Assembly (NCBI GenBank): GCA_965205025.1
Contig: CBDBFU010000028.1
Coordinates: 128,001-192,000 of the forward strand
From: Candidatus Poribacteria bacterium
GTDB lineage: Bacteria; Poribacteria; WGA-4E; WGA-3G
Length of the DNA: 64,000 nucleotides
Direction: 5' to 3'
The notes beneath the pieces were generated by a model. It was given only the letters and a program-made list of their open reading frames with translations, was not told the origin of the DNA and searched no databases. Each line of letters opens with the position of its first letter. Positions within the stretch are counted from its first letter, which is position 1. Shown one piece after another: positions 11,138 to 50,079 of this stretch. The translations under genes and the position numbers were made by a program.

Positions 11138-11246
11138 GAATAGTGTCAAAAGTTTAGTATGATTTTAAAACTAAGATATTTATGTAACGGACTATATTGT
11201 TGCACATAAGATGCATCAACAGTCATGTTTAATTCGGAGGAATAGA

Positions 11247-13070: not shown

Positions 13071-13449
13071 TTATCTCTTGGATACAAATATTGTTATAGA
13101 ATTATTCAATGGCAACAATACAATTCTCCATAAAATGCAAAATGGGGGTAACTTCTTTTTAGCTTCACCAATGATTGGGGAACTTTATTATGGTGTACAG
13201 AAATCGGATAAAATCACAGAAAACCTAAATAGAGTTGACAGTTTTATTGAAAATCATATGATTCTATCTTGTGATTTGGTTACTGCACAATGGTATGGAA
13301 TCATTAAAAACGAATTACGTATAAAAGGCACTCCAATTCCAAATAATGACATTTGGATCGCTTCTGTGGCAATGCAGCATGAATTAATCTTGGTGACACG
13401 TGATTCACATTTTGATGAAGTGGAATCTCTACAAACGGAACGCTGGTAG
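13054..13449 (+). CDS. vapC: VapC family PIN-domain toxin
   Basis: YLLDTN, GELYYG, GTPIPNNDIWIA, LVTRDSHF. Confidence 0.92.
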   Translation: MSQNGNYLLDTNIVIELFNGNNTILHKMQNGGNFFLASPMIGELYYGVQKSDKITENLNRVDSFIENHMILSCDLVTAQWYGIIKNELRIKGTPIPNNDIWIASVAMQHELILVTRDSHFDEVESLQTERW

Positions 13450-19900: not shown

Positions 19901-20559
19901 TTAGATTGATCCGGAGTTAACAATATACTTCCCTTGATATATCCGTCTGATAAAATGATGTTATATGTTCCTAAAGTCTCAAAAAGGTTGATATTTCCCT
20001 CATCAACTGTAATCTCAAGGTTTCCTCTAATATTGTAGACGTTAATATTTCCTTTGGTTGCTGTTATCTTTAGGGAAACATCTGGGGGTGTAATAATTGA
20101 GTATGTTAAATGAGATCTGTCGTAATTATCTTTAGGAATATATAATATCTGAGTGTTCAGTCGAAGTGTTCCTTCGTTTAATACACCATCTAATATTATA
20201 CTATCAGTAGGGAGTTCTGTATACTCTTCAGAATCTCCAACTGGATTCTGTATAATGTCTACCTTAATTGAGTTTGATTGTAAGTTATTATCCTGATTCG
20301 TTGTGATGTCAATATTTGCTGGAAAGTCAAGGTTAAGTTCAATTGCAAAGATCCCAATGTAATCAAAGGACTGGGTGGTAATTGTCTTGCTTTCTTGTGT
20401 ATTTTGAGGAGTTGATTGTGTAGTGTCTTTTGTTGTTTCAGGAGATATAACTTGATGGCCGAATGCACCAATTGAATTAATAGAGAGAAATAACATTGAC
20501 AACAAGAGACAAAAATGAAAAGGAATTGGAGATATATTGATGGTAGACATGGAAGCCAA
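16906..20559 (-). CDS. Omp85/BamA-TamA family outer-membrane protein with N-terminal DUF4097-like and CBM9-like domains and POTRA repeats
   Basis: Signal peptide; GxI beta repeats; PKIDGNLSEKAW/DECIEILLD CBM9-like; three IxIxGN POTRA starts; LRGY motif; terminal F. Confidence 0.8.
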   Translation of the reverse strand: MASMSTINISPIPFHFCLLLSMLFLSINSIGAFGHQVISPETTKDTTQSTPQNTQESKTITTQSFDYIGIFAIELNLDFPANIDITTNQDNNLQSNSIKVDIIQNPVGDSEEYTELPTDSIILDGVLNEGTLRLNTQILYIPKDNYDRSHLTYSIITPPDVSLKITATKGNINVYNIRGNLEITVDEGNINLFETLGTYNIILSDGYIKGSILLTPDQSNITTRNGSIELIVLDNLAAPLKLTALGGGIRLLLPKDYPADLSYNSVKEQIVVNVPAEIDDNSGLINDGGPLLNLTSTGMISILPAPTLQGTTDDSQSDILDDMSSIININIPKTSIRPKIDGNLSEKAWFYSTQLTPFQSHDGKEGIDSQTDVSLMYDEKFFYIGAKIYIQNNIIPRVSQTQLDSPIWEDECIEILLDMNPDTERYQHIVINPIGAVFDQLVEKVGYPTIKFHPNNTRKINLKHNYVNFKGDSSWNSDVIAETKINSSFWSLELAIKRRPEDDIDSNTWLLNIHRKAQGSLKDNQSIDRITQREYSYWLPIHNEEHPWWPHSREVMGILIFDKNENIDESYTYANNLEISSIDIKGNNTIPPDIIMKRLPYSTGNIISNVQLSWMLDELSTIDWFKGVRLQSTLVENKENKEQVNSEQDLSNNRADTANTNGKDFNHQNSSSLKVNLQLDITEAHIKYIRKINIDGNKYFPSSFIMNWFNIRDGYLVDSSINLKKQMVEDFYINRGFPFAKVTDQIKNDEFILNIKEGYVDEIRFTGNRRISQYDLKEAFEFDKDEVFFHSLGQSKINDLKKKLSKDNDEFKSIRDWYVQREGGKNLLIIDIEEQPRFQPGWFPIFGFNRVHGITLGAGGTLSTQVWGNEQLFVSVRRGFTSEKWNYRFGIEDEVFDFFPMKFGIGLYRLTDSSTQVFRLRPADIDLLGALYGSSSENYYERMGTQYWFSKPIGNISQFRLGYRHEQHDNLAKTTDWSYFFRSRVKNGNLRIEDGQQSILSLSYTFDTRDRKSLTGRTDQFGGELILWPNERNRRGWRGNIGVQTAGKSLGGDFSYRLYSFEVNKYTKVSGPHNINIRIAGDFSDNILPRQRILYLGGFTTLRGYPLNAFAGDNRVLLNVEYRLLNEILIDPSSDAAIGMSLCVFMDSGKTWEYGENPFPDSSLRNFYTSIGLGLSCYISPPKGFNPFSAAIEFAFPVNKSYYLKAYPIILRLERMF

Positions 20560-29508: not shown

Positions 29509-32388
29509 ATGAAGATATTTCTAATTAGAACACCTATTCTGATTTTATTTCCTATATATATATGTCTTGTTTTCACGAGAATGAGTTACGGACAGGTAAA
29601 TCCTGCAGTAATCTCTGTGAATCCTGCTACAATTGAATCTCCAATGATCGGAGATGAATTAACAATCAGTCTTGATATTACTGGCGGAGTAAATGTCGCA
29701 GGATATCAAGTAACCGTTAACTTTGATTCCACTGCTCTCAGATTTATCTCAAGTGAGAATGCCGATTATCTTCCTGCGGGTGCATTGTCAGTACCACCAT
29801 TAGTCTTGGATGATTCAGTAACTGTTGCTGCTGTAGCTATAGGTGTATCCGCGCCAGAAGATGAAGGCACCCTTGCCAGAGTAACATTTGAAGTAGTGTC
29901 AGTAAAAGACTCAACACTTAAACTAACCAATGTCATACTGTCTGATACTAATAGTTCCGAACTGCCAAATTCAACTGCAGACGGTATAGTTACCGCACCG
30001 GTCTCTACTGAAGTATTCTCAATTGCAGACATAGTACTGATTATAGATAGTTCAGGGAGTATGGAGTGGAATGACCCGAATATCCTACGGAAGACTGCTA
30101 CGAAGTACTTTATAGATTTAATGGATCCTGGAATTCAAATTGCGATTGTAAATTTAAACGGAACAACAAAGACGTTTGCTGAACTCACTTTCGCGGATGG
30201 AACTGGAAAAGAACAATTAAAGAATGCTGTGGATAGAGTTGATTCTGATGGGGATACTGATATTGCTGCGAGTCTGCAGTTAGGATATGAGCTTTTATCT
30301 GCATCTTCCTCTCCAGATGCAAGAAAAGCAGCTGTGTTATTAACCGATGGTCAGGATTTGGAACCAAAGACTGCATCATCTTATGTTCAAAACTATATAC
30401 TCCAAGGTTGGGATGTATATACAATAGGATTAGGGCTTGAAGTTGATAAAGAGTTACTTGAGGACATAGCTACACTCACTCCAGAAGGTGACTATTTTCC
30501 CGCTTCTCTTGATAATATACAGAAAATATATAATGAGATCTTCGCAAGAGTAACGAGAAAGGAAATCCTTTTTAACAACATTGGATATATCAATCAAAAT
30601 CAACAAATTACCAAGAAGTTTCTCATTGATTCCTCAGTAGAACAGATGGTCCCTTCTGCGAATTGGCAGGGAAGTACAATAGAATTAATCCTCGTTGATC
30701 CGAACGGTTTGGAGATAACACCCCAAGATGCCCTCACGAACCCAAGAATAAAATATCAAGATGCCTCTACTTACGCTATCTATACCGTTGATGATCCGAT
30801 GCCAGGTGAATGGGGAATGAAAGCAACTGGTACAGATATTCCACCGGAGGGTGAACAATTTAACTTAATTGTTTCTGCATCGTCAGACATTGTCACCAAT
30901 TTCTTGAGTTTTGAACCGAGTTATAATATTGGAGATCCAGTACGTATTGGCATACGTGCCAGAACCAAAACAATCCAAAGTACTAACCCAGTATTAGGAG
31001 TACAAACCTCAGCCGAAATTGTTCGTCCGGACGGTGGTATTGACACCCTTGATTTGCTTGATACAGCAACAAACGGTGTTTATGTGAACGATTATTTCGG
31101 AGTAGATATAGAGGGAACATATCTCATCCGTGCGACAGTAGAGAATGGGTTTACTCGTGAAATACAAGAGCAAATTGTGGTTGGTGACATTTCTAATATA
31201 TTCATTGATGGGAGCACATTGACACCCGCTGCTGGTACGACGCTTGACGCATCACCGAGTGTTATCAGTGCGGTTATTTCAGGACCAGCAATTCAAATTA
31301 ATAGCGATACAATTGAACTACAAGTTAATGGATCAACTGTTTCCCATGGGTATGATAAGGTTAATCAACAGGTGTTATACCGTCCTCCCGGTCTATCTCC
31401 GGGTGAACACACCGTAAAACTGAATGTTAACAACGAACTTGAGACGACATGGACGTTTAATCTTGGGTTTTCTGAATCGCGTTTTGAATTGTTACTCGAC
31501 CCTGGTCTTAATGTAGTCTCCTTACCATTAAAACCGAGAGATCCCTACACTGCTAAATCATTCAGCGAATTACTGAATGCAACACTTGTTGTGAGACACG
31601 ATTCAACATCCCAGACATACATAGCGTATGTTGCTACAGATGACACAGATGAAGGTTTCATGATTGAAGGGGGCCGTGGATATATAGTCAATACCCCTGA
31701 GCCAACGACAGTTGATTTCATTGGTACAGCTTGGTCAAACCAACCGTCAATTGCAACCGCTCCAAGCAATACGACCACGACAACGACTTGGGCATTTGCA
31801 ATTAATAGTAAATTGCAAATGATGGAACCAGATAGACAATACACACTTACAGCGAAAAACCTTCGTACTGGTGCGGTTGTATCTGAAAGCATATCAACTA
31901 CCGGCAAAAGTTCCACAGCTGTATGGGCAGATATGAACCGTAATAGTGTCGTTCAATTAGGTGACATGCTTGAATTCACTGTAAACGATTCAACAGGAAA
32001 TATCATTTCTGGACCTTTTAATCAGCTGGTCACTATTTCAGATATTCGTAATGCATATATGTTTGTCCAAATGACGGTAGGAGATATTCGTCCGAGAGAT
32101 ACACTTCTCGGTCAGAACTACCCAAATCCATTTAACCCAGAAACCTGGATTCCGTATCAGATAAGTAATCCAACTGACGTTTCGATCCTGATTTATAATC
32201 ACACGGGACATATAGTAAAAACACTGGAACTTGGTATGAAACCAGTAGGTATCTACGTGGACCGTTCGCAGGCTGCATATTGGGATGGGACAAATGAAAC
32301 TGGTGAATCCGTAGCAAGTGGTGTGTACTTCTATACGCTCATCGCTGGCGAATTTTCTGCTACACGCAAGATGTTAATAATGAAATAG
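29509..32388 (+). CDS. Secreted cohesin + vWA protein with C-terminal T9SS-A/FlgD-Ig-like domain
   Basis: Signal peptide; cohesin-like VAGYQVTVNFD; MIDAS DSSGS and LLTDG; QNYPNPFNPETWIPY...WDG...GVYFY. Confidence 0.88.
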   Translation: MKIFLIRTPILILFPIYICLVFTRMSYGQVNPAVISVNPATIESPMIGDELTISLDITGGVNVAGYQVTVNFDSTALRFISSENADYLPAGALSVPPLVLDDSVTVAAVAIGVSAPEDEGTLARVTFEVVSVKDSTLKLTNVILSDTNSSELPNSTADGIVTAPVSTEVFSIADIVLIIDSSGSMEWNDPNILRKTATKYFIDLMDPGIQIAIVNLNGTTKTFAELTFADGTGKEQLKNAVDRVDSDGDTDIAASLQLGYELLSASSSPDARKAAVLLTDGQDLEPKTASSYVQNYILQGWDVYTIGLGLEVDKELLEDIATLTPEGDYFPASLDNIQKIYNEIFARVTRKEILFNNIGYINQNQQITKKFLIDSSVEQMVPSANWQGSTIELILVDPNGLEITPQDALTNPRIKYQDASTYAIYTVDDPMPGEWGMKATGTDIPPEGEQFNLIVSASSDIVTNFLSFEPSYNIGDPVRIGIRARTKTIQSTNPVLGVQTSAEIVRPDGGIDTLDLLDTATNGVYVNDYFGVDIEGTYLIRATVENGFTREIQEQIVVGDISNIFIDGSTLTPAAGTTLDASPSVISAVISGPAIQINSDTIELQVNGSTVSHGYDKVNQQVLYRPPGLSPGEHTVKLNVNNELETTWTFNLGFSESRFELLLDPGLNVVSLPLKPRDPYTAKSFSELLNATLVVRHDSTSQTYIAYVATDDTDEGFMIEGGRGYIVNTPEPTTVDFIGTAWSNQPSIATAPSNTTTTTTWAFAINSKLQMMEPDRQYTLTAKNLRTGAVVSESISTTGKSSTAVWADMNRNSVVQLGDMLEFTVNDSTGNIISGPFNQLVTISDIRNAYMFVQMTVGDIRPRDTLLGQNYPNPFNPETWIPYQISNPTDVSILIYNHTGHIVKTLELGMKPVGIYVDRSQAAYWDGTNETGESVASGVYFYTLIAGEFSATRKMLIMK

Positions 32389-36862: not shown

Positions 36863-37462
36863 TTATTTTGGGATATTGAAACTTTCCAAACGGCAGTTGA
36901 TTAATTCTTCTGTTGATATCTTAGATAATTCATGTAATAGTGTGAGTATTTCCATCTGGAGATCATCTTGTTTATGGGTGATTTTCAGATGGTTTTGTTT
37001 TAACTTTGATAGTTCTATGGGTTTTTGATTATTCGGTATAACTATAATGGAACCATCTACCGACTCAAATTCTTCTGCGATGTCTTTCCAATCGTAACTT
37101 TCATCAAAAACTGTAATGATAGGGTGAGGAAATCTAAGTATTTCTGTTTGTATATTACCAATTGCGGTACTTAATGCTAAAGAGGTATTATATAATTTTA
37201 TGGCAGATTGACGTATTGGTAAATTCCAGAATGTGGCAGGTAAATTAAGACGTTGTGCAAGATTGATTAATCTATACAGTCGTCTCCAATCATGTGTTTC
37301 TTTAAGACTCTGTGAATTCCCATGAACTAATAGAATCTTCTGATTCTGCAGTTCAGCTAAGCCGGCAAATTCAAAGTTTCCTTGTCCGCCAGCTCTGTCC
37401 CCATAGAGTTGTATAGTTTTTGTAAAATGATTGTGATTATAGTTAAAATCAAGTGAAGACAT
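36863..37462 (-). CDS. Degenerate AccA (carboxyltransferase alpha)-like protein
   Basis: LYGDR, AGLAEL, RLINLAQRLNLP, PIITV and ELSKISTEELINCR echo AccA; GEGGSGG absent. Confidence 0.55.
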   Translation of the reverse strand: MSSLDFNYNHNHFTKTIQLYGDRAGGQGNFEFAGLAELQNQKILLVHGNSQSLKETHDWRRLYRLINLAQRLNLPATFWNLPIRQSAIKLYNTSLALSTAIGNIQTEILRFPHPIITVFDESYDWKDIAEEFESVDGSIIVIPNNQKPIELSKLKQNHLKITHKQDDLQMEILTLLHELSKISTEELINCRLESFNIPK

Positions 37463-37475
37463 TTTATACTACTAT

Positions 37476-37514
37476 AAAAAAAGCAGGGAGGTGTAGTTTT
37501 CTGCACCTCCCTGC
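37476..37514 (-). terminator. Intrinsic terminator of the giant-protein operon
   Basis: GCAGGGAGGTGCAG-aaaa-CTACACCTCCCTGC-T7 on the minus strand. Confidence 0.85.
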
Positions 37515-37536
37515 CAGAATGATCTAATGAATTTAA

Positions 37537-38400
37537 TTATTCGCCGCTTCGTCCACCGATTGAACTAAGAACGAACCAACCGATTCCAGCGACAGCAGTT
37601 GTTACGAATACCAGAGCACGTTTTCCTGAAGATACCTCTTCATGTATACCTTTAGCATTCTTAATCATCATCTGTAATTCACTGATAGCCTTTTGATTTG
37701 TCTCAATTTTCATCAGAATAGATTTTACACTTTCTTGAATATTTCCAATAGAATCTTGAGTTGCCTTCAGATCTTTCTGAAGTGCTCCTAACATCTCATT
37801 AGAAGAATCAAGATGTCCGTGTAAATCTTCTAACTGTTTTACTATTGCATTCTTAGCATTTCTAACAGCTTTCTTGACATCAGCAGTGGATTCATCACCA
37901 GACTTCTTGACAGCATCAACGACTTTATCCTGTGATTTTAGGCTGTTTTCCAAAGCTTTAATTTGAGCTTGAAGTTTAGCAGTACTTCCCTTCATAGCTT
38001 CAATATCAGCCATCAATTTTTCACGTTTTGCCTCAGATTCTTCAAGTTCTGCACGTAGTTTATCTAATTCATCCTTTTCAATTTTTACGACATCTTCGGC
38101 ATCATCAACAATTTCCTTTGCCAAGGAAACAGGAATACGCAACTTTTCACCTGGATAAATCAGGTCAGGATTGGTGAAGTCATTATACTTTTTCAATTCT
38201 GGCCATTTTGTAGGATCTTTTAAGTGTTCTTGACAGAGATCCCAGAGTGTATCACCCTTAACAATAGTGATTAACTTGGTTTCTTCATCAGTCTCCTTTG
38301 GAGTAATCCGTGCGGAGGCAGATAAGACATAAACACCAGTAAGAGCAACACATATATAGAGAACCAGTGTTAATTTTAAAGTGTTTTTAATAATAGTCAT
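37537..38400 (-). CDS. LysM protein with coiled coil and C-terminal TM helix
   Basis: Signal peptide; IVKGDTLWDL...NPDLIYPGEKL; heptad region; C-terminal hydrophobic helix. Confidence 0.88.
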   Translation of the reverse strand: MTIIKNTLKLTLVLYICVALTGVYVLSASARITPKETDEETKLITIVKGDTLWDLCQEHLKDPTKWPELKKYNDFTNPDLIYPGEKLRIPVSLAKEIVDDAEDVVKIEKDELDKLRAELEESEAKREKLMADIEAMKGSTAKLQAQIKALENSLKSQDKVVDAVKKSGDESTADVKKAVRNAKNAIVKQLEDLHGHLDSSNEMLGALQKDLKATQDSIGNIQESVKSILMKIETNQKAISELQMMIKNAKGIHEEVSSGKRALVFVTTAVAGIGWFVLSSIGGRSGE

Positions 38401-38420
38401 CAGTATTCTCCTCTTTGGTG

Positions 38421-39434
38421 TTAAAATTCATAGGAGACAGAAACATAATGGGTGCTTCCTGCTCCACTGATTTCACTTGCCATACCATCTTGTATAGCAT
38501 AGTCAACCTGCAGTCCAGCAATGTTAACCCCAAATCCACCATAAAGCGTTCGTACATCACGTGATGCTTTCATCCCAGTACGTAGTGCGAAGTTGGTAGA
38601 TCTGTTAGTGAAAAGGTTATATTCAACACCGCCGCGGAGGCTGGTTGCACTTTCATCAAGATTAACGAATTCCTGTTCAATATCAACGGCGAATGTTACA
38701 ACATTCCCCATGTATAGATCATAAGCTACACCAGCATTCACTACCATTGGTACAGTTGCTTCACCTATAGAAGCCCCAAGGTATTTTGCGACCAACCCAT
38801 AATGGAATGTTGGAACCATTGCCTCATGATGTTGGTTATGTAATGCTTGATCCATCATATCTTCAGCAACATCAATGTGTAATGCATGTCCCATGATCCC
38901 GATATCTACACCGCCTAAACCGCTTTGGTTTTCAACAGTATCAACACCAAAGTTATCAGATAGCATACGACCTGTTAGACCGATATTGAAGTTTCCGAAA
39001 GCGATTCCATAAGAGAGTGAATAAGCATTTGTACTATAATCTGCTGTTCCACCATAGGTTGCCGATGAATCGTATATTGGGTAATTACCCACACCAGAAT
39101 TTAATGCGGCTAATCCTATTGAACCGTATGAACCGAGTGATTTTGTAATTGCGATAAAGTTATGACTTCTATCATGTGACAATCTTTGTGTAGAGAAATT
39201 TAGGCTTAGATCAGCCGCAGATCCCAGTCCGGCGGGATTCCAGACAGTTGCTGTGGCATCTTCTGCTATTGCTGTAAATGCGCCACCTAAACCGATAGAA
39301 CGCGCACCGGCACCGAGGCGTAAGTGAGGCATAGCGTTAACCTCTCCCTCAGCAAAACAGACAGGCGATATAGCCATGAGAAGTAATAATACGGGGATAA
39401 CACCGTATAGCAATTTTTGCTTTGTAGTAGACAT
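38421..39434 (-). CDS. PorV/PorQ (UPF0164, FadL-like) outer-membrane barrel
   Basis: GARSIGLGGAFTAIAEDATATVWNPAGL signature; VDYA; terminal SYEF. Confidence 0.85.
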   Translation of the reverse strand: MSTTKQKLLYGVIPVLLLLMAISPVCFAEGEVNAMPHLRLGAGARSIGLGGAFTAIAEDATATVWNPAGLGSAADLSLNFSTQRLSHDRSHNFIAITKSLGSYGSIGLAALNSGVGNYPIYDSSATYGGTADYSTNAYSLSYGIAFGNFNIGLTGRMLSDNFGVDTVENQSGLGGVDIGIMGHALHIDVAEDMMDQALHNQHHEAMVPTFHYGLVAKYLGASIGEATVPMVVNAGVAYDLYMGNVVTFAVDIEQEFVNLDESATSLRGGVEYNLFTNRSTNFALRTGMKASRDVRTLYGGFGVNIAGLQVDYAIQDGMASEISGAGSTHYVSVSYEF

Positions 39435-39456
39435 TAATTAATATCCTCCTTGGTAG

Positions 39457-39500
39457 CCGTTATCGTAAGTTGGACATTCTGTCCAACTTACGATTTACGG
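39457..39500 (-). other. Strong intercistronic hairpin
   Basis: ATCGTAAGTTGGACA-ttc-TGTCCAACTTACGAT 15-bp stem, no U-tract. Confidence 0.7.
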
Positions 39501-39512
39501 ACCATCTTTTAC

Positions 39513-42500
39513 TTAGCGCGTCAGTGCGAGCTTTAGCATGACGAATTCAGGTTCAATACCATCATTCACTTCTATTTGACAGAAATAGATACCTCGAGCT
39601 AAGTCTTCGCCACTGCTGGATTTACCGTCCCAACCGATTGCATTAGAACCAGCACCGGCAGGATTCTTTGTATAGTTACCAGCATCCATTACCTCGTTAT
39701 CAACAAGGACTCGGACTGGACGTAATGTAGAATCCAATATTGTGATACTAACATTTGCCCTGCGTGCGAGTACAAGAGAAATCCGAGTATTCTTACTGAA
39801 TGGGTTCGGGTAGTTGAAGGGTGCTGCCCACATAATTGGGGTGTCTCCACGCTCGACAAAGAAACTAAACTCATAAACAGCTGTGTTAGCTTCACGAGCA
39901 CCTTTATTCTTCTCAGAGACATTCCCCTGTTGATGTGCGTTGTCAGACACTTCTAACTTGACCACATATTTCCCAGGTTCCAAGTCAGCAGGAGGTGTAT
40001 AATTCACCTGTGATGCAGACTTCTGCTTGGATGTGAGGTTAATCAATTGATCATTGAAGACAAACCTGATGGAATCAACATTGACACCTGTACCAGCATC
40101 AGAATAAGCAATCGAAATATTTGGTTTACGTTCTTCATCGTGTTTATATGTCAAACGAGAACCATTTTGTGGTGATGCCATTGTGATGATAGGTGCAGCG
40201 GTATCAAAGGTAACAGTGAAGCCACCTTTTGCGGTAGAGGAATTACCGTATCCATCTGTTGCTCGAACATTAATCGTGTATGTTCCCTCTTCAAGTGGAG
40301 CATCAGGATTGAAGTCTAAGCGTGTGATTCCTTCATTGGCTCTATCTTCGTCATCATCAGAAGTTTTACCCTTCACCTCTTTGCCTTCACTGTCCATTAG
40401 GGTAATAGACATTTCTTCTACACCAGTATCATCCGTTGCACTCGCCGAGATAGTCGGGAGTCCAGCAAGGACTGTACCAGAAGGTGTAATGTTTGTAATG
40501 GCAGGTGCTGCTTCATCTACTTCTACAGTGAATGTCCATCTGAATTCCTTCGAACCACCTTCACTTGCAGCTATCAATGTTATTGAATGTGTTCCTGCAT
40601 TAAAACTATGCGTAACTTCAAACTTATTACCAGCATTATCAACTGGGTAAGAATGAGTTGGTGCAGTGTCATTAATCAGGTATTTCACACTCAAGAGATC
40701 AGACTCAGGATCAGAGATATCAGCGGAGATAGTTATTCCCATATCCTCATCAGCAACATCAGCTTTATTCAAGCGAACGACTCCTGTCGGAGCGTATGCT
40801 GAGATTATAGGTGCTGTCTTATCTTTCATCACTGAGAAAACGACCGAAGCTTCTGCTGTCTTCTTATTTGCATCAGTAACTTCAACAACAACAGTGTGCT
40901 CGCCGTCACCCAATGCTGGATCAACTGTATATGTGAGTTGGTTATCTTCAACTTCACCATCGGCATCTTCACCATTAATTGTAAATGTAGTTACATTAAC
41001 TTCCGTGGAACCCATGAATTCAGCCCTAATCACTGGTGTGCCGTGATCATAGGTTTGACCAGAAGCAGGTGAAAGGATTGAAACAGAAGGTCCAGGAATA
41101 TCAACAGTAAAGACAGTAGTTGCTTGTGCAGTCTTGCCATTGGCATCCGTCACTTCAACTGAAATTGTATGGTCGCCATGTGCTAATGCTTCAGCAAGAT
41201 CATGAGTAAATTGATTACCATCAACCTTTACTTCTGCATCTTCACCGTTAATAGAGAGTTTCACTTCTACTGGAGCGACACCTGTGAATTCACCAGCAAT
41301 AACGGGTGACCCATTATCATAGGTTAGACCTGCAGCGGGTGACTTAATTGTTACAGTAGGTTCAGGTAATCTTACGGAAAATACTGCAGTTGCTTTGGCT
41401 GTTTTACCATTCGCATCCACAACTTCTGCTACGACTGTGTATTCCCCATCATCTAAACCATCAGCAGGTGTAAATGTAAATTCGTTACCATCTACCTCTA
41501 CTTCAAGTTCTTCATCGTTAACCATTACTGTCAATTCAGGATCCACACCTGAAAATTCACCTTGAAGCATTGGTTTACCATGATCGAACAATTGTCCTGA
41601 CGCCGGTGAATGAATTGCTACTGAAGGACCAGGAATATCAACGGTAAAGACCGATGAAGTCTCAGCAGTCCTTCCATTTCCATCTGTTATTTCAACAGCA
41701 ATCGTATGTTCACCATGACTCAGAGCATCAGCCGGAGTATATGTGAATTCGTTGTTGTCGTTCACAGATGCTTCTACTACATTACCATCAATTGTCAATG
41801 CAACTACAATCTCATCAGCACCAGAGAAATTACCAGATATGACTGGTTTACCGTGGTCTAAAATCTGACCAGCAGTCGGTGATAGAATTGCAACTGTAGG
41901 TACAGGTAAACTAACGGAAAATACAACGGTTGCTTTGGCTGTTTTACCATTCGCATCTGTCGCTACTGCGACGACTGAATATTCACCATCACCGATTCCA
42001 ACTGGTGGGGTAAATGTAAACTCATTACCATCTACAACAACTGGAATAGCTTGACCATTAACTGTTACTGCAACTGTAGCCTCAACACCTGAGAACTCAC
42101 CTTGAAGCATTGGTTTACCGTGATCAAACATTTGTCCTGCAGCAGGTGAATGAATAGCTACCGTAGGACCAGGAATATCAACGGTAAAGACCGATGAAGT
42201 CTCAGCAGTTCTGCCATTTCCATCTGTCACTTCAACAGCAATCGTATGTTCACCATGACTCAGAGCATCAGCCGGAGTATATGTGAATTCGTTGTTGTCG
42301 TTCACAGATGCTTCTACTGCATTACCATCAATTGTCAATGCAACTACAATCTCATCAGCACCAGAGAAATTACCAGATATGACTGGTTTACCGTGGTCTA
42401 AAATCTGACCAGCAGTCGGTGATAGAATTGCAACTGTAGGTACAGGTAAACTAACGGAAAATACAACGGTTGCTTTGGCTGTTTTACCATTCGCATCTGT

Positions 42501-45500
42501 CGCTACTGCGACGACTGAATACTCACCATCATCTATTCCAACCGGTGGGGTAAATGTAAACTCATTACCATCTACAACAACTGGAATAGCTTGACCATTA
42601 ACTGTTACTGCAACTGTAGCCTCAACACCTGAGAACTCACCTTGAAGCATTGGTTTACCGTGATCAAACACTTGTCCCGCAGCAGGTGAATGAATAACTA
42701 CTGAAGGACCAGGAATATCAACGGTAAAGACCGATGAAGTCTCAGCAGTTCTGCCATTTCCATCTGTCACTTCAACAGCAATCGTATGTTCACCATGACT
42801 CAGAGCATCAGCCGGAGTATATGTGAATTCGTTGTTGTCGTTTACAGATGCTTCTACAGCATTACCATCAATTGTTAATGCAACTACAATCTCATCTGCA
42901 CCTGAGAAATTACCAGATATGACTGGTTTACCGTGGTCTAAAGTCTGACCAGCAGTTGGTGTTAGAATTGCAACTGTAGGTACAGGTAAACTAACGGAAA
43001 ATATAACGGTTGCTTTGGCTGTTTTACCATTCGCATCTGTCGCTACTGCGACGACTGAATATTCACCATCATCTATTCCAACTGGTGGTGTAAATGTAAA
43101 CTCATTACCATCTACAACAACTGGAATAGCTTGACCATTAACTGTTACTGCAACTGTAGCCTCAACACCTGAGAACTCACCTTGAAGCATCGGCATACCG
43201 TGATCATAGGTTTGTCCTGGAGCAGGTGAATGAATAGCTACCATAGGACCGGGAATATCAACGGTAAATATAGTGGATGTCATAGCAGTCTTTCCGTTAG
43301 CATCTGTAACTTCAACGGCGACTGTATGTTCACCATGACTTAACTCCATTGCAGGAGTGTAAGAGAATTGATTACCGCTTGTTTCCACTGCAACAGTCTC
43401 TCCATCAATAGAAAGTGCAACCATTACAGGATCAGCGCCAGTAAATTCACCCGTTATAATAGGTGTACCATGGTTATATACTTGAGTTGGTTCTGGTGAT
43501 AGAATTGCCACTGTCGGAATAGGTAATGTAATTGTAAAGGTTAAACCTGTCTGAGATGTTAATCCACTACCATCCGTAACTTCAACAGAGACGTTATGAT
43601 CGCCTTCAATGAAACCACCATCAGGCATATAAGTGAAGTTGTTTCCCTCTACATCCGCGGTTACATCAGCATCATTGACCATAAACTTCGTAATGTTTAC
43701 CTCACCACCACCAGTATAGAAACCGGTGATACTTGCTGGACTTGCATCAAATTGTTGTCCAGAAGCAGGGGCAGTTATTACGACTGTTGGGTTGATACCT
43801 TCTACAGCAAATGCGACTGAATGATTACCGATGTTACCAAGACTATCACTTACCTGAACAGCGAACTTATAGGCTCCACCTGCAAGTTTGTCTATTCGTG
43901 TATAGACGACAGAATCGCCATCTTGTTCAACCATACCTTGGTCAACATCAATCGGCATCTCTTCCTGAGTGTCGCTGTTAGGACGTAGCCGTGCTAAACT
44001 TACAGCTGCTGTATTATCAGCACTTACACCGACACCTAAATCGCCATCGTTATAGGTCGCCTGGAGGGTTGGCAAGTCATTGACTGTTGCCCCTTCAGTA
44101 GGCGTTACAAATTCAACCATTGGACCGGTGTTATCAAGATTAATCATTGCTAATGGGAAGGCTACCGAACCGTTTCGTTTGGTAGCCTCACCATGGGGTG
44201 TATACCATCCGTCAACGACGCTGCCGAGTTCATCTGCCATTAATGAGAATGAATTCTCAGCATCACTACCAGCTGTATACATAACACGGTGACCATCAAC
44301 AAGGACGCCAGTAAGATCATCAACCATCAACGAACCATTATTCACATTGAAACTAACGGAGATAGAATCACGGAGTGGGATCGTTTCTGGGAGCTCACCT
44401 TCGACAAGTTCACCATCAACTGCTGTTACTGTTAGATCAGTAATATCACTGACACGGAAGTTGAGGACATGTACGGTGACTATCGGTGAAGGCATATCAA
44501 GTTCACCTTGAACTTGCCAGTTCCCGAATTCGTCTGCAACAAGCGCATGATACATATATGTACCATTTGCCAACTGACCAACATCAACAGTAACAGTGCC
44601 GTCTTCCAGACTACCATCTGTTGCTGTCATGTTTCCATCGGCATCAGTTTGTACGACTCTGATACTACCACCTTCATAGGTAATAGGATTAGCAGTTGGT
44701 TCAACAGTGAATATAGCAACGGGTGTATCAACGGTAGGATCAACAATACCGCCAACAGTGTAGCTGTCATCTTCATTAGCTTCAATTGAGCCAGCGGCAT
44801 CAGCAACATCTGTGATGTTTGTCGGACCGAGTGGTGGCACATCATCAAGATTGTCTAATGAGAAGGACGTTTCGACACCACCTCGTTCTAAATATTCATC
44901 CCGTTTTGGATATTCGACTTGAGCCAGATTTGCCGGTGTGAGTGCATACGCACGTACCACATACTGGTTCTCGTCTTCGACTACAGAGCGTTCAGAAGCA
45001 CCATCGCCTCGGTTGATTGTATCATCAAGTTTGATGGTATTTTCTGCTGTGACGGTATCTTCCAATGCCAACTTACGCGTATCCACTTTATAAGACCATT
45101 TCCTAAGGGTCGCGGGACTTGTCCCTTCTGCCTCAGAAATGTCAACAAGTGCACCAATAACACCAACATTCGTAATTCCAGCATTTACCTCAGGAATATC
45201 GTACAAATCTGTAATTGGCACTTCGGATACATTCACAAGTTCAGATGGCTCTGCAGTACCAGTAATACGTTCCCACGTATCATCAACGGGGCGTTTAACT
45301 TCAACACGAATGCCTTCGGTTGGAGCTGAAGTAGTACCGTGCGTATAGACATCGAAAGTGAGTTCACCTTGCGGTGCGCCACTGTCCGGATTTACCATGC
45401 CATCTGAATTCACAACGGCAATTGCTAATACACCCGGATCAGGTCTGTAGGAATTTTGGACATTAACTGTGACTTTATTGTCAACAGTCTCAATGATTTG

Positions 45501-48500
45501 ACCATCGGCATCACGATCATGGGATTGAATCCATTGCATATTCCCTTCCATGTCCGCGTCATAAGCCCTGGCATATACTTTAAAACTAAATACTTTGCCC
45601 TTTGGATTATAGATATTCTTGTCCGCATTTTCGATATATGCATCTTCCAAATATGTATCATTGTGGACATCATCATCTTCATCCATCAGTGTACCGACAT
45701 CAACAGTTACAGTAAAGACACCTGCTTCAGTTTCGGTTATATCCCCGATAATAGCACCTGCAGGTAGATCTGTGTTGAATTCCACGGATGCGTAGGTATC
45801 ACGTTTCGCTGTCGCTGTAATCGTGAACGTAACTACAGGAGATTCCGAGGTATATTTATCAACAAGACCGCCAACTGTATAAGTTCCGTCACCATTATCC
45901 ATAAAGACAGAATTTTCTGGGTCAATGCTTGTTGCGACGACGTTTGTCGGACCGAGTGGACCAACGTCGTCATCATTGTCTACTGAGAATTTTTCGGTAA
46001 ACGCATCGCCTTCAGCAACTCCAGCTTCATCCTTCCCCTCGGTGGTAACTGGGTACGCACGTACCATGTAACGGTTACCATCCAACTCTACATACGTCAT
46101 GTCAGGATCGGATGCAGCGTGTGCAGCATCAAGATCAGCTTCAGTGATACTGTCTGCTAAAGCAGTGGTATCAACATCAACAGACCATTTGACGTAGCTG
46201 CTGGTTGAATCAACGTGGGTATCTGAAGCCTCATAGACAGCTGCTAAAGTTTTACCTTTAAACATGGCATCGGCTGTCATAGCACCATCAACAACATTAT
46301 CACCATCAGGTGCAGTCTCGACTTCAGCAGTACCAACATCCATCCAATCGTTGCCGTCCATACTGACTTGAACCAGAATAGCAGTTGTCTCTGGCACTGT
46401 CCGACGTGCTGCATATCCATCAAGTGTGATTGTACCTTGCGGTGCACCACTATCCGGACTTCTCATCTTGATGGAATCTTGATCAACATCGGCAATCAAG
46501 ACCTTCGGATCAACTGGAAGCACATCCGCATCAAGATGTATTTTGAACATCTCTGATGTATGTGAAAACTCTAATTCATTAGTAGTTACAGTTTGAATAG
46601 CGACTTCAGAACCGGCAGCGACTAAGTCTTGGAAATCTGTTACTGTCCAATGGACTTGGATAGTATCACCAGCTGTTTTATCGGCTTCTTTCAAGTCAAA
46701 CGTATAATCAGGATCATCAGACGTTAAATCAGGATCATAAATTGTAACCCATTCTCCATCGGCATTCTGATACTGTACCTTGATTTTTCCTGGATGGACT
46801 GTCCGTTCAGTGAGTGTAACTGTTAGAGTGATCATATCAGTATTACTGTAGAGATGATCATTTTCATAGGAGTCAACTTTACCGTTATGGTTGATATCAC
46901 CTAAACTTGCGGCTGTTACCTTTGATCTATCAGTCTCAGGACCAACGATTCTTAGTCTTGTTGGTGGCACATGAGAACCGACATTAAAGACTGTATCAAT
47001 CCCCATAGCACGGATACCAAAATCACCAGTTAGGAGTGGTATATTTTCACCTTGGATAGGCATTCCCATGGGACGTGCCGGATCAAATACTAAAGGAATT
47101 AGATTAAAGTCTTGGATGACAGCTCCAAACAGGCCACCAATTAATTTTAGTTGCTCATCACTGAGTTTTATATTTAAATTAGCCAAGAATGGTCCTGCTA
47201 ATCCTGCAATATCAGCATTTAGCAAACCAATCAATGCATTTACATCTAATCCTGCCAATACTTGGATATTTGGATCTGTCTGTCCTTGTAATTCTTCTCG
47301 GATTCGATCCCAAATATCTGATGCTAACATTGAATTTTCAACTGTCAATGGCAACCAAGTGCCTACCGGATTTCCATCAGCATCCAAATCAATTAACTGA
47401 TAAAGGAAATATCCTGTAGCTGTATCAAAACCAACTGTGTCACCAATACCAACTGCGTTACTTGCATGTATGTTTAGTACAGATGGTAGTGATGAATCTT
47501 TAGCAGTAGCGACAAAAATACCATCTTTATTCAAATAACCTGCAGTATTTGCATCCGCGGGTTCGATTGCGATATCTGCTGTTGGCGCAGTGGTGTCAAC
47601 CGTTAGGTTCGCAGTAATATGATCAACTGCAGCACCATTTGCATTATATACAACCGCTTCAATCTTAGATGTGCCACCTATTGGCGAATCTTCAATTGAA
47701 CCGATATCTGCATACCATAGCGATTCAATAGCATTATCAACATCCCCTATAGTGAATACTGATGATAAACGCGGATCAAAATTGCCTTCAAATGTTGTAA
47801 ACAATGCATTGGCATTTCGTAGTATCAACCTTCCCAATTTGTTTACATCACTACCTTTAATTTTAAATTCAGATGCAGGTTTACCCAATTGGGGTAGGAC
47901 TATCGTTGCAACTTCTGCTGCGACATCTGGGGTAATCAGATCCTCAAGAATACCACGATCAGCAAATTGAAGGTTTTTGGGATCTGGCATTGACCAACTA
48001 CTTATAGTGTATGTATTAGTAGGATCAAGGCTGTGTGTACCTGCTTTTGAATCAAGTGCTTCAAAAACTGCTTCAGGATTAATTACCTCAAGCATGACAG
48101 GTTCAACCAATGTAACTTCAAAGTAGTAGTAAGTACTACCTTTGGGAAGGATACCTATCTTACTTTCCCAAACAACGCCGTTTTCACCATGCACTGGGTC
48201 CATATCAACGGCGATGTAATCTCCATCCAAACCTGTCTCTGAATACCGTAGCACAACACCTGAGAAGAGTTGGTTGCCTAAAGCTGGCCATGCAGGTAAG
48301 TTAGTTGCAGCAAGTGATTCCTCTAAACTGAAGACATAAGGAATCGTATCAGCTTGAAATTCATCGGTAGTTATTCGTTTTCCTTCACCGACGATGTAGT
48401 CGTCGATCCTGAATTCAACACGTCCTCCTTCAAGTGTAGACGGAACACGTACATTAAGATTTAGACTATCACTTGTGAGATACTTCTGTTTGAACGGACC

Positions 48501-49445
48501 TTCTGGATCATCAAGGTTGAAAATTGCGCTCAGCAGTGAAGGTGTAATTCCATTTCCAAAGTTATCAGGGTCCAACTGATCTTCATTAAGAGGATAGAAA
48601 GGAGACCGTGGATTCCGTGCAGTGAGTACTTGTTTAATTTGTTTCTTTGGTAGGAACCCTTTTGGAACTTGTGCAAGAATAATGTCAACAACATCATCAA
48701 CATATTCATCTGCTAAATCCTTAGATAATCCAGCAGCTTCAATCATATCTCTGATAAAGGCTCGTCCGTGTACTCTATTCAGGGAAAGTCCACCGAGTTT
48801 TGACTTGCCATTTATATTTGATGGAGTCAATTCAACAGGATCACCCATCCCTTCTTTTGGGGGGTCAGGTTTCACTGGTGGTGGTACAGGATCCACTGGT
48901 GGTGGTACAGGATCCACTGGTGGTACAGGATCCACTGGTGGTGGTACAGGATCCACTGGTGGTGGTACAGGATCCACTGGTGGTGGTACAGGATCGGTTG
49001 GAGTTGCCGCAGCAATCAACGCTGCGAGTTCATCAAGTGCAGTGGCAAGCTCATCACCCTTTAAACTAAGTAAAGCCACAGTGGTATTATCTTTTAGCAC
49101 TGCTTGGACATCCGCATCTGCTATCAAAGCAATGTGATCATCAGTTAGTGTGATACCTTGAGCCGCAGCAATGCCTTTTAACGTGGCTCCTGTAGGATCG
49201 GACGTAACTAAAGTGATAGCAGTATTGATTAGGGTCGGTATATCAAGAGGTGAGCCCTTAAGACCATCCAAAAGCGGTGGCAGGTGAACTTTCACGTCAT
49301 CACGCAAAAGTGTATCTTTATGTTCATCAAACACTTGTTGCGCTAAAGAGGCATCCTCTTGCGCTAACACAATGCCTGGGGTTAAACTGTGAAAAACACA
49401 CAATGTAAAAATCAAAAACGAAACAAAGAGTGTTCGTTTTTTCAT
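39513..49445 (-). CDS. Giant (3310 aa) secreted acidic Ig-like repeat surface protein with C-terminal T9SS-A/FlgD-like domain
   Basis: Signal peptide; Pro linker; many ~90-aa Big-type repeats; NYPNPF...WDG...GIYF; GAGGAGG RBS. Confidence 0.9.
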   Translation of the reverse strand: MKKRTLFVSFLIFTLCVFHSLTPGIVLAQEDASLAQQVFDEHKDTLLRDDVKVHLPPLLDGLKGSPLDIPTLINTAITLVTSDPTGATLKGIAAAQGITLTDDHIALIADADVQAVLKDNTTVALLSLKGDELATALDELAALIAAATPTDPVPPPVDPVPPPVDPVPPPVDPVPPVDPVPPPVDPVPPPVKPDPPKEGMGDPVELTPSNINGKSKLGGLSLNRVHGRAFIRDMIEAAGLSKDLADEYVDDVVDIILAQVPKGFLPKKQIKQVLTARNPRSPFYPLNEDQLDPDNFGNGITPSLLSAIFNLDDPEGPFKQKYLTSDSLNLNVRVPSTLEGGRVEFRIDDYIVGEGKRITTDEFQADTIPYVFSLEESLAATNLPAWPALGNQLFSGVVLRYSETGLDGDYIAVDMDPVHGENGVVWESKIGILPKGSTYYYFEVTLVEPVMLEVINPEAVFEALDSKAGTHSLDPTNTYTISSWSMPDPKNLQFADRGILEDLITPDVAAEVATIVLPQLGKPASEFKIKGSDVNKLGRLILRNANALFTTFEGNFDPRLSSVFTIGDVDNAIESLWYADIGSIEDSPIGGTSKIEAVVYNANGAAVDHITANLTVDTTAPTADIAIEPADANTAGYLNKDGIFVATAKDSSLPSVLNIHASNAVGIGDTVGFDTATGYFLYQLIDLDADGNPVGTWLPLTVENSMLASDIWDRIREELQGQTDPNIQVLAGLDVNALIGLLNADIAGLAGPFLANLNIKLSDEQLKLIGGLFGAVIQDFNLIPLVFDPARPMGMPIQGENIPLLTGDFGIRAMGIDTVFNVGSHVPPTRLRIVGPETDRSKVTAASLGDINHNGKVDSYENDHLYSNTDMITLTVTLTERTVHPGKIKVQYQNADGEWVTIYDPDLTSDDPDYTFDLKEADKTAGDTIQVHWTVTDFQDLVAAGSEVAIQTVTTNELEFSHTSEMFKIHLDADVLPVDPKVLIADVDQDSIKMRSPDSGAPQGTITLDGYAARRTVPETTAILVQVSMDGNDWMDVGTAEVETAPDGDNVVDGAMTADAMFKGKTLAAVYEASDTHVDSTSSYVKWSVDVDTTALADSITEADLDAAHAASDPDMTYVELDGNRYMVRAYPVTTEGKDEAGVAEGDAFTEKFSVDNDDDVGPLGPTNVVATSIDPENSVFMDNGDGTYTVGGLVDKYTSESPVVTFTITATAKRDTYASVEFNTDLPAGAIIGDITETEAGVFTVTVDVGTLMDEDDDVHNDTYLEDAYIENADKNIYNPKGKVFSFKVYARAYDADMEGNMQWIQSHDRDADGQIIETVDNKVTVNVQNSYRPDPGVLAIAVVNSDGMVNPDSGAPQGELTFDVYTHGTTSAPTEGIRVEVKRPVDDTWERITGTAEPSELVNVSEVPITDLYDIPEVNAGITNVGVIGALVDISEAEGTSPATLRKWSYKVDTRKLALEDTVTAENTIKLDDTINRGDGASERSVVEDENQYVVRAYALTPANLAQVEYPKRDEYLERGGVETSFSLDNLDDVPPLGPTNITDVADAAGSIEANEDDSYTVGGIVDPTVDTPVAIFTVEPTANPITYEGGSIRVVQTDADGNMTATDGSLEDGTVTVDVGQLANGTYMYHALVADEFGNWQVQGELDMPSPIVTVHVLNFRVSDITDLTVTAVDGELVEGELPETIPLRDSISVSFNVNNGSLMVDDLTGVLVDGHRVMYTAGSDAENSFSLMADELGSVVDGWYTPHGEATKRNGSVAFPLAMINLDNTGPMVEFVTPTEGATVNDLPTLQATYNDGDLGVGVSADNTAAVSLARLRPNSDTQEEMPIDVDQGMVEQDGDSVVYTRIDKLAGGAYKFAVQVSDSLGNIGNHSVAFAVEGINPTVVITAPASGQQFDASPASITGFYTGGGEVNITKFMVNDADVTADVEGNNFTYMPDGGFIEGDHNVSVEVTDGSGLTSQTGLTFTITLPIPTVAILSPEPTQVYNHGTPIITGEFTGADPVMVALSIDGETVAVETSGNQFSYTPAMELSHGEHTVAVEVTDANGKTAMTSTIFTVDIPGPMVAIHSPAPGQTYDHGMPMLQGEFSGVEATVAVTVNGQAIPVVVDGNEFTFTPPVGIDDGEYSVVAVATDANGKTAKATVIFSVSLPVPTVAILTPTAGQTLDHGKPVISGNFSGADEIVVALTIDGNAVEASVNDNNEFTYTPADALSHGEHTIAVEVTDGNGRTAETSSVFTVDIPGPSVVIHSPAAGQVFDHGKPMLQGEFSGVEATVAVTVNGQAIPVVVDGNEFTFTPPVGIDDGEYSVVAVATDANGKTAKATVVFSVSLPVPTVAILSPTAGQILDHGKPVISGNFSGADEIVVALTIDGNAVEASVNDNNEFTYTPADALSHGEHTIAVEVTDGNGRTAETSSVFTVDIPGPTVAIHSPAAGQMFDHGKPMLQGEFSGVEATVAVTVNGQAIPVVVDGNEFTFTPPVGIGDGEYSVVAVATDANGKTAKATVVFSVSLPVPTVAILSPTAGQILDHGKPVISGNFSGADEIVVALTIDGNVVEASVNDNNEFTYTPADALSHGEHTIAVEITDGNGRTAETSSVFTVDIPGPSVAIHSPASGQLFDHGKPMLQGEFSGVDPELTVMVNDEELEVEVDGNEFTFTPADGLDDGEYTVVAEVVDANGKTAKATAVFSVRLPEPTVTIKSPAAGLTYDNGSPVIAGEFTGVAPVEVKLSINGEDAEVKVDGNQFTHDLAEALAHGDHTISVEVTDANGKTAQATTVFTVDIPGPSVSILSPASGQTYDHGTPVIRAEFMGSTEVNVTTFTINGEDADGEVEDNQLTYTVDPALGDGEHTVVVEVTDANKKTAEASVVFSVMKDKTAPIISAYAPTGVVRLNKADVADEDMGITISADISDPESDLLSVKYLINDTAPTHSYPVDNAGNKFEVTHSFNAGTHSITLIAASEGGSKEFRWTFTVEVDEAAPAITNITPSGTVLAGLPTISASATDDTGVEEMSITLMDSEGKEVKGKTSDDDEDRANEGITRLDFNPDAPLEEGTYTINVRATDGYGNSSTAKGGFTVTFDTAAPIITMASPQNGSRLTYKHDEERKPNISIAYSDAGTGVNVDSIRFVFNDQLINLTSKQKSASQVNYTPPADLEPGKYVVKLEVSDNAHQQGNVSEKNKGAREANTAVYEFSFFVERGDTPIMWAAPFNYPNPFSKNTRISLVLARRANVSITILDSTLRPVRVLVDNEVMDAGNYTKNPAGAGSNAIGWDGKSSSGEDLARGIYFCQIEVNDGIEPEFVMLKLALTR
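41560..43270 (-). repeat. 540-bp near-identical intragenic tandem repeat (about 3 copies, two Ig domains each)
   Basis: ACGGTAAAGACCGATGAAGT at 41641, 42181, 42721. Confidence 0.92.
48873..48995 (-). repeat. 21-bp minisatellite encoding (DPVPPPV)x6, one copy 18 bp
   Basis: CCACTGGTGGTGGTACAGGAT tandem units. Confidence 0.92.
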
Positions 49446-49907
49446 TAACTTTTCCTCCTCGTTAAGTCACGCTAAAACGAGACTAAATACTGAAGTTTTA
49501 AATGGGCGATAAACACGACATAAAAGACCGGAGGTAGGTGTTTGCCCATCCAAATAACATCCTACTACCAAGTATAAAAATTCTTTTTCCTACTACGTAA
49601 GTCAACCCAAAGATAGTGTTAACATATCTTGAATAAATGTCAAAAGCAGCAATTCTTGGCACCGAAGATTGTAGCATCCCAATGTGGATACGAAGCGATA
49701 GTTTACCTAATAGATTCGGTTGATTACGTATATCTAATGTTTTATTGACTGAAAATGAGTCCATAATAAAGGAACATCGGATATTTTAACAAATGTCAAA
49801 ATAATACACAAGTATTTAATTGGAAAATAGTGTTTAATTCTTGTAAAAATATCAAATTTCCCATCCTATCATTTTATATCAACGATTAAATTATAGTCAT
49901 AGATAAC

Positions 49908-49936
49908 ATATTACCATAAATTAAAATATAAGTCAA
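49908..49936 (-). promoter_or_regulatory. Sigma70 promoter for the giant-protein operon
   Basis: TTGACT-N17-TAATAT with TG extended -10 on the minus strand. Confidence 0.45.
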
Positions 49937-50018: not shown

Positions 50019-50046
50019 TTGACAGAATACTATTAAAGGTTAAAAT
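50019..50046 (+). promoter_or_regulatory. Sigma70 promoter for the second phyH-family gene
   Basis: TTGACA-N16-TAAAAT. Confidence 0.5.
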
Positions 50047-50079
50047 TGTCAACAAAGATTCATGTTGGAGAAAATAGGT

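Follow-up and report, generated by a model that had tools for sequence, protein, structure and literature searches.

A conserved three-gene locus of Candidatus Poribacteria that may form a surface-display module around a PorV-like barrel

Introduction

In Flavobacterium johnsoniae the giant adhesin cargo SprB is encoded beside its outer-membrane shuttle SprF, and in many Bacteroidota porU lies just upstream of porV; PorU and PorZ, two components of the T9SS (type IX secretion system) attachment complex, are anchored through C-terminal domains (CTDs) that they retain. The attachment complex is described as PorQ, PorU, PorV and PorZ in the relevant passage of PMC12365241. According to the part of PMC10994853 that deals with F. 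johnsoniae, the extracellular loops of PorV bind CTDs and a conserved lysine of the CTD bonds with the PorV main chain, while the passage of PMC12618676 on type B CTDs reports that genes of such cargoes are linked to those of cognate PorP/SprF-like outer-membrane shuttles. The sections of two reviews on the distribution of the system (PMC9127263, PMC11205867) place it in the Fibrobacterota-Chlorobiota-Bacteroidota (FCB) superphylum only. The locus considered here lies outside this superphylum, in a stretch of 64,000 nucleotides from a Candidatus Poribacteria genome (assembly GCA_965205025.1, contig CBDBFU010000028.1, positions 128,001 to 192,000), referred to as the window, and is formed by three consecutive genes encoding a giant protein with a type A-like CTD, a PorV-like outer-membrane barrel and a LysM coiled-coil protein. 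What is new in this trio is that, outside the FCB superphylum, the gene of a PorV-like candidate carrier or anchor is linked to those of a type A cargo and of a LysM strut.

Poribacteria are dominant uncultivated symbionts of sponges, listed in the NCBI taxonomy under candidate phyla and outside any FCB grouping. They possess many proteins with a type IX tag: the passage of a 2014 study devoted to this subject (PMC3909097) reported many TIGR04183 proteins in incomplete single-cell genomes of these bacteria, found none of the Por structural genes and did not settle the pathway. This negative statement is the only one found by literature searches that paired Poribacteria with the T9SS, and the barrel offers a concrete handle on the question of how poribacterial CTD proteins are exported. 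The trio is read here as a conserved poribacterial surface-display module around a PorV-like carrier or anchor, a reading that is probable on balance, if not strongly so.

The PorV-like barrel

The central gene of the trio (P0002; 38421-39434, minus strand) encodes a protein of 337 aa including a signal peptide, which carries the label 'hypothetical protein' in all NCBI-named orthologues listed and had been called a PorV-family barrel in an earlier interpretation of the window made from sequence alone (the sequence-only reading). Its best sequence family is the subfamily model NF033709 (PorV_fam), with 73.4 bits over profile positions 3-326 of 326; the cutoff of 90 is not reached. Weaker matches were obtained with the PorV2, PorQ and PorV equivalog models, and a weak one, below its cutoff, with Pfam UPF0164 (17.7 bits). 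Distant relatives of the barrel were drawn from a search of 1.84 billion proteins and 22 of them were scanned with the profiles: 20 exceed the NF033709 cutoff (97-135 bits), the remaining two, P0136 and P0148, reaching 70.9 and 60.3 bits. A fused C-terminal OmpA-like peptidoglycan-binding domain is present in at least six of the 22 (P0138, P0140, P0141, P0162, P0172 and P0176), and thus the tying of this class of barrel to peptidoglycan recurs. In another distant relative, P0188, the fusion partner is instead a sensor domain of the class D beta-lactamase/BlaR1-like kind.

The AlphaFold2 (AF2) model of the barrel, computed from a 98-sequence alignment with a predicted local distance difference test score (pLDDT) of 89.0 and a predicted TM-score (pTM) of 0.85, has 14 strands and is of the FadL type, with a fold closest to PorV. 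Indeed, the best two of at least 500 fold matches in the Protein Data Bank (PDB) are PorV chains from structures of the SprA translocon, 8gl6_F (E 8e-12, query TM-score, TMq, 0.71) and 6h3i_F (E 3.7e-10, TMq 0.67), with root-mean-square deviations (rmsd) of about 5 Å, whereas FadL, TodX and TbuX occupy the third to about the twentieth rank with TMq values of about 0.5, and FadL-type matches have an rmsd of 9-10 Å. A His-rich insertion of variable length (aa 189-205; 38820-38870, minus strand), long in some orthologues and absent from others, is located in a predicted periplasmic turn, where pLDDT falls below 50. By its profile and fold matches the barrel is a divergent member of the PorV/PorQ family; its membership in PorV proper is unconfirmed.

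The sorting domain and its predicted binding

The CTD of the giant protein occupies its final 110 aa (39516-39845, minus strand) and belongs to the type A class, with an NYPNPF motif and, in an alignment of 33 sequences, a near-invariant K-L-A-L-T-R at the C-terminus. TIGR04183 matches aa 3212-3297 of 3310 with 24.3 bits, a thin margin over its cutoff of 23, and Pfam PF18962 gives 25.1 bits, under its cutoff of 27; since the TIGR04183 match exceeds the cutoff of this hidden Markov model and lies at the very C-terminal end of a chain that starts with a Sec signal peptide, the giant carries a type A sorting domain. Neither any type B CTD model on the giant nor the PorP/SprF model TIGR03519 on the barrel gave a match at E<=0.01, and the two are not a type B pair by these models.

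The mature barrel (aa 29-337) was co-folded with the 110-aa CTD of the giant in three runs, alongside three controls. The interface score ipSAE was 0.86, 0.87 and 0.86, the best control reaching 0.00, with an agreement of contacts between runs of at least 90% and a pLDDT of the partner of at least 83; 116 of 157 solved complexes attain the ipSAE mark applied, as do 2 of 215 mismatched pairs, counts that are a rough guide here, where own alignments were supplied. The barrel residues in contact (86-89, 113-125, 160-170, 223-227 and 258-261) correspond to loops L1-L5 of the model. All predicted contacts of the CTD fall on odd-numbered extracellular loops or on the N-terminal segment and none on periplasmic turns. 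On the side of the CTD, the NYPNPF motif takes part in the predicted interface, as does the conserved C-terminal lysine, and the contacts of lowest error are found at residue 105, a near-invariant lysine five residues from the C-terminus. Family, fold and this predicted binding on extracellular loops agree with the PorV-like nature of the barrel, and the interface between CTD and barrel that the sequence-only reading anticipated is found in prediction.

A second CTD cargo is encoded 7 kb from the trio (29509-32388, plus strand). This protein of 959 aa combines a von Willebrand factor A (VWA) domain with a cohesin-like region and ends in a TIGR04183 match of 29.8 bits, and its CTD is about 30% identical to that of the giant and can be aligned with it. 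CTD-profile matches at positions comparable to that of this second cargo are also present in loci L001, L002, L015 and L042, orthology not being implied.

Conservation across Poribacteria

Conservation was followed in 80 loci from species-representative genomes, all belonging to Candidatus Poribacteria, as does every named homologue of the barrel. DNA 5' of the barrel is contained in 78 of the loci, and in all 78 it is the CTD-bearing giant that comes directly before the barrel, ending 4-139 nt (nearly all 4-78) ahead of the start of the barrel's homology or open reading frame (ORF); the remaining two loci start inside the barrel gene. On the other side, the LysM gene is 3' of the barrel in all 80 loci, separated from it by 5-26 nt in 76 and by 41-73 nt in three, with an overlapping ORF call in one. 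The identity across loci is 65-94% for the barrel, the most conserved protein of the neighbourhood, and 47-93% for the LysM protein. The synteny of the trio in the phylum, proposed as a check of the sequence-only reading, is thus found on both sides of the barrel.

A second group of PorV/PorQ proteins (P0125, P0275-P0393), of about 308-313 aa and 40-50% identical to the barrel of the trio, occurs in Candidatus Poribacteria records, where NCBI names some of its members 'PorV/PorQ family protein' or 'UPF0164 family protein'. Neither the 80 loci nor the window contained a member.

The giant cargo protein

The gene of the giant cargo (P0001; 39513-49445, minus strand) is an ORF of 3310 aa, in which a Sec signal peptide is followed by a body of multiple beta-sandwiches, immunoglobulin (Ig)-like repeats and the CTD. 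The protein is acidic, with an isoelectric point (pI) of 4.16 and 498 D+E against 180 K+R, and the signal-peptide-like character of its N-terminus was read from the sequence. A variable N-terminal domain of about 145 aa stands ahead of a proline-rich PVDPVPP linker (48866-48995, minus strand), encoded by 6.3 copies of a 21-nt tandem repeat; aa 1-200 can be aligned in only 20-39% of 58 complete orthologues. From aa 200 on, about 0.5-1.0 of the positions are aligned in these orthologues, with 25-74% identity per 50-aa block, so that the giant is a conserved phylum-wide protein and not a fast-changing adhesin.

The non-repetitive part of this conserved region (aa ~200-1990, ~1800 aa; 43476-48848, minus strand) is predicted to consist of beta-sandwich domains with helical inserts. 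Its positions are mostly aligned at 0.8-1.0, falling to ~0.5-0.6 over aa 1251-1350, with 25-65% identity. The AF2 model of aa 205-945 (pLDDT 77.3) displays such domains and inserts, and its fold matches in the PDB are generic multi-Ig only (TM-score <=0.15), among them complement C5, alpha-2-macroglobulin, PrgB and an S-layer protein. No Pfam match was obtained before ~aa 1850, even at E<=0.5; for these first ~1850 aa the search of PDB sequences returned nothing below E 0.027, and the Atlas feature search only generic Ig clusters (0.81-0.84, under the lead level of 0.9). The Ig-like repeat stalk (39846-43475, minus strand) contains Big_13, Big_7, Glucodextran_B and Ca_tandemer-like repeats, the first three of which begin, as Pfam matches, only at ~aa 1990, and it includes DNA repeats of 270/540 nt at 40961-43376. 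The length of the orthologues ranges from 1194 to 3203 aa in 59 complete copies, 58 of which have at least 1889 aa, and copies running off the edge of a locus reach at least 3307 aa; the differences are mainly due to the number of Ig repeats.

The possibility that the giant is PorU was considered and rejected: it scores 56.3 bits with the PorU profile, against a cutoff of 420, the match is restricted to the C-terminal Ig/CTD region of PorU (positions 953-1078 of 1095), and a peptidase domain is missing. Its description as an acidic Ig-repeat protein with a type-A-like CTD stands, as shown by the pI, the Pfam repeats and the TIGR04183 score.

The LysM coiled-coil protein

The third gene (P0003; 37537-38400, minus strand) encodes 287 aa, for which the sequence-only reading had given the order signal peptide, LysM domain, coiled coil and C-terminal transmembrane helix. 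This layout is retained: LysM PF01476 is found at aa 44-90 with 37.4 bits, well over its cutoff of 20.9, hydrophobic segments occupy aa 8-30 and 262-281, and a helical, heptad-rich stretch of ~165 residues lies between them, for which arithmetic gives a length of ~24 nm if it forms one continuous helix. The protein measures 285-294 aa in 78 of the 80 loci, and among the homologues listed 119 of 120 have 286-292 aa and one 285 aa. The sequence of the coiled coil diverges despite this constant length, which fits the role of a spacer.

A role as motor or energiser was rejected, since the single C-terminal helix has no acidic residue and no similarity to PorL, PorM, TolA or TonB was detected with Pfam and NCBIfam. 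The Atlas search with the LysM protein gave no usable match.

Layout and expression signals

The three genes are co-oriented, with intergenic gaps of 78 nt between giant and barrel and of 20 nt between barrel and LysM gene, and the strong Shine-Dalgarno motifs GAGGAGG, AAGGAGG and AGAGGAG can be read 6-9 nt 5' of the three ATGs. The unit is closed by an intrinsic terminator (37476-37514, minus strand), an 11-bp GC-rich stem followed by T7, which was overlooked by the consensus scanner and whose hairpin folds with -25.3 kcal/mol (z -4.3; as stable in 1 of 200 shuffles). Genes, ribosome-binding sites and terminator are therefore as the sequence-only reading had them. Between the stop codon of the giant and the Shine-Dalgarno site of the barrel there is an intercistronic stem-loop (39451-39504, minus strand), without a U-tract, with a folding energy of -30.5 kcal/mol (z -6.8) that none of 200 shuffles equalled. 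In an alignment of 13 sequences, the window and 12 of the 80 loci, all with a gap of 72-78 nt, compensatory changes affect 7 of its 20 pairs. Tight packing, shared terminator and conserved hairpin together argue for co-expression of the trio. The stem-loop may set the ratio of giant to barrel expression or protect the upstream mRNA.

The promoter proposed by the sequence-only reading is not supported. The candidate sigma-70-like site (49908-49936, minus strand; TTGACT-17-TAATAT, TG-extended) is a consensus match only, at 9 of 12 positions, and promoter-like sites are in no excess in the consensus scan, 38 being observed against 38.0 expected from shuffles; a site with 10 of 12 positions is also present at 50024-50052 (minus strand). 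The claim was dropped, such sites being as frequent in shuffles. Between this site and the giant gene extends a leader or intergenic stretch of ~460 nt (49446-49907, minus strand), containing an 88-aa ORF (49498-49764) that was not counted as a gene, as it has no Pfam or NCBIfam family and a tblastn match in 7 of the 80 loci. Rfam found only five tRNAs in the whole window, and no known leader RNA 5' of the giant gene.

The rest of the window

NCBIfam was run on the 47 ORFs of the window, 35 of them at E<=1e-6 and the others at E<=0.01 or 0.001, and no T9SS family was found besides PorV_fam and the two CTDs; the absence of SprA and PorKLMN genes from the window, already remarked in the sequence-only reading, is thus borne out for these 47 ORFs. 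The window is ordinary chromosome, with genes for ribosomal proteins, haem biosynthesis, transporters and WD40 proteins.

A 1217-aa protein of the Omp85/POTRA family, with ~680 unannotated N-terminal residues, is encoded 19 kb from the trio (16906-20559, minus strand); Omp85 proteins can translocate proteins, which makes it a possible export route. Near the gene of the second CTD cargo, a 908-aa protein (25761-28487, minus strand) contains tetratricopeptide repeats, DUF3857 and a transglutaminase-like core with a cysteine-protease fold, and a role in CTD processing would be pure speculation. Just past the terminator, a gene of 199 aa (36863-37462, minus strand) without signal peptide has a weak AccA-like match and is present in 78 of the 80 loci at 33-80% identity. 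Farther away, a 901-aa fusion (1240-3945, plus strand) joins an extracytoplasmic function (ECF) sigma-70 factor, in its N-terminal ~180 aa, to a long WD40 beta-propeller, and a stand-alone WD40 protein is located at 35-1141. Two adjacent PcfJ-like proteins (9517-10956 and 11211-12692, plus strand) and a VapC-type PIN toxin (13024-13449, plus strand) suggest a small mobile or accessory patch.

Proposed mechanism and alternatives

In the mechanism proposed, the giant would first be exported by Sec and would then cross the outer membrane by a route that the trio does not explain, for which either a divergent translocon of the SprA type or some other pore would have to be encoded elsewhere. Loops L1-L5 of the barrel are predicted to clasp its CTD, as PorV clasps type A CTDs, and by this binding the giant would be held on the cell surface, or handed over there, in parallel with the precedents of PorV and its cargo, PorV-PorU, PorQ-PorZ and SprF with SprB. 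The barrel probably serves other CTD proteins of the phylum too: the second CTD cargo in the window, together with the reported abundance of CTD proteins, makes a general carrier likelier than a private anchor. Of the earlier proposal that the barrel anchors its own cargo, the binding is predicted by the co-fold, while its exclusivity is doubtful, given a second TIGR04183 protein so close to the trio and many in the phylum. The LysM protein may be a periplasmic strut of fixed length, with the C-terminal helix in the inner membrane and the LysM domain at the peptidoglycan, which would tie the envelope layers near the barrel, as a passive element comparable to PorE or an OmpA-like domain and not as a motor.

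Several points weigh against the surface-display module. The trio has no component able to carry a folded protein of 3310 aa across the outer membrane, and the success of the co-fold, which speaks of likeness and not of binding, may be due to the model's memory of solved PorV-CTD complexes. The barrel remains under the NF033709 cutoff (73.4 against 90 bits), and with 22.3 bits against a cutoff of 250 for the equivalog model NF033710 it does not qualify as PorV proper. Neighbouring genes with no relation to the trio keep their place as well (P0004 in 78, TauE in 71 and PhyH in 44 of the 80 loci), and all the loci belong to one phylum, so that adjacency represents few independent events and is weak evidence alone. 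The second PorV/PorQ group, which may be paralogous or may represent the orthologue in other lineages, counts by its existence in the same direction. The promoter is unproven, and the membrane topology and signal-peptide cleavage of the LysM protein are readings from its sequence and not computed.

Poribacteria might instead have an ordinary T9SS, with a complete divergent set (SprA/Sov, PorK/L/M/N, PorU/Z) elsewhere in the genome, the barrel acting as its general PorV, the LysM protein being an envelope protein unrelated to it and the giant adjacent as a major cargo or by inherited gene order; this is possible, if doubtful. Many CTD proteins for one highly conserved barrel, as indicated by the relevant passage of PMC3909097 and by the second CTD protein in the window, would suit it, as would a barrel more conserved than its neighbours, like a hub with many partners, and the synteny of the entire neighbourhood; the second PorV/PorQ group could then provide an attachment complex with its PorQ-like partner, and the negative report of 2014 rests on incomplete single-cell genomes and models of the 2013 era. 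However, the barrel and the CTDs are the only T9SS components among the 47 ORFs, the review sections cited above (PMC9127263, PMC11205867) restrict the T9SS to the FCB superphylum, to which Poribacteria do not belong in the NCBI taxonomy, literature searches on Poribacteria and the T9SS found the 2014 negative statement only, and packing, terminator and conserved hairpin favour co-expression of all three genes, the LysM gene included. An opposite proposal, that Poribacteria sort type A CTD proteins without SprA and PorKLMN, the barrel and the LysM strut being a minimal type IX-like core with a different passage of the outer membrane, is held to be unlikely; if true, such a system could represent an ancestor of the T9SS or a reduced form of it, the 2014 question on CTD secretion would have its answer, and recognition between CTD and PorV would be seen to work apart from the rotary T9SS.

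The three genes might also be unrelated neighbours, the barrel being a channel of the FadL/UPF0164 type for hydrophobic compounds with no tie to the giant or to the LysM protein. The sub-cutoff UPF0164 match of 17.7 bits, the presence of FadL, TodX and TbuX behind the PorV chains in the fold list and a synteny that takes in clearly unrelated genes lend it some weight, but it is very improbable in view of the distance between PorV and FadL matches (TMq 0.71/0.67 against ~0.5, rmsd ~5 against 9-10 Å), of PorV/PorQ as the best sequence family, of the CTD co-fold (0.86 against 0.00), of gaps of 5-78 nt and of a first terminator that comes only after the third gene. It is still harder to credit that the giant never crosses the outer membrane and forms, with the LysM strut, a periplasmic or wall-associated scaffold joined to the barrel on its inner side: by the passage cited (PMC3909097) the phylum has no known translocon, strut and giant are co-transcribed by position, and the His-rich variable insertion (aa 189-205) lies in a predicted periplasmic turn, but none of the predicted CTD contacts is on a periplasmic turn, all of them lying on extracellular loops or on the N-terminal segment, and wherever CTDs of type A have been studied they serve as outer-membrane export signals, as far as the relevant parts of PMC12618676 and PMC10994853 go.

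If the barrel of the proposed surface-display module binds CTDs, then either a divergent T9SS exists beyond the FCB superphylum, or there is a pair of CTD and carrier without the known translocon and motor, and the giant conserved protein would be a leading candidate for the host-facing surface. Either outcome bears on the evolution of the T9SS and on the way in which these symbionts build the surface turned to their host.

Comparison with known systems

The closest described protein is PorV of F. johnsoniae and Porphyromonas gingivalis (PDB 6h3i and 8gl6, chain F), the best fold match of the barrel, with which it has in common the 14-strand FadL fold and NF033709 as the best-matching subfamily model. 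PorV receives the CTD on its extracellular loops, with the C-terminal lysine in the interface, and the same is predicted for the barrel. The two are nevertheless only ~14% identical in the fold alignment, and the barrel stays under the family and equivalog cutoffs. Differently from PorV, it occurs in a non-FCB phylum where T9SS structural genes were reported missing, it has no known SprA partner, and it is encoded right after a cargo gene and before the gene of a LysM strut.

This gene order resembles that of the PorP/SprF pairs, which share with the trio the adjacency of a giant adhesin-type cargo and its shuttle or anchor; in the trio, however, the CTD is type A-like (TIGR04183) and the barrel PorV/PorQ-like. 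The trio can also be likened to PorV-PorU and PorQ-PorZ, where a barrel of the PorV/PorQ family holds a CTD protein at the surface, unreleased, although the giant, unlike PorU, has no peptidase domain. Finally, the LysM protein differs from PorE, to which it shows no homology, in being a separate protein whose LysM domain is followed by a long coiled coil and, at the C-terminus, by a membrane helix; what the trio would have in common with PorE and with the OmpA-fused barrels is a peptidoglycan-binding module tied to type IX outer-membrane machinery.

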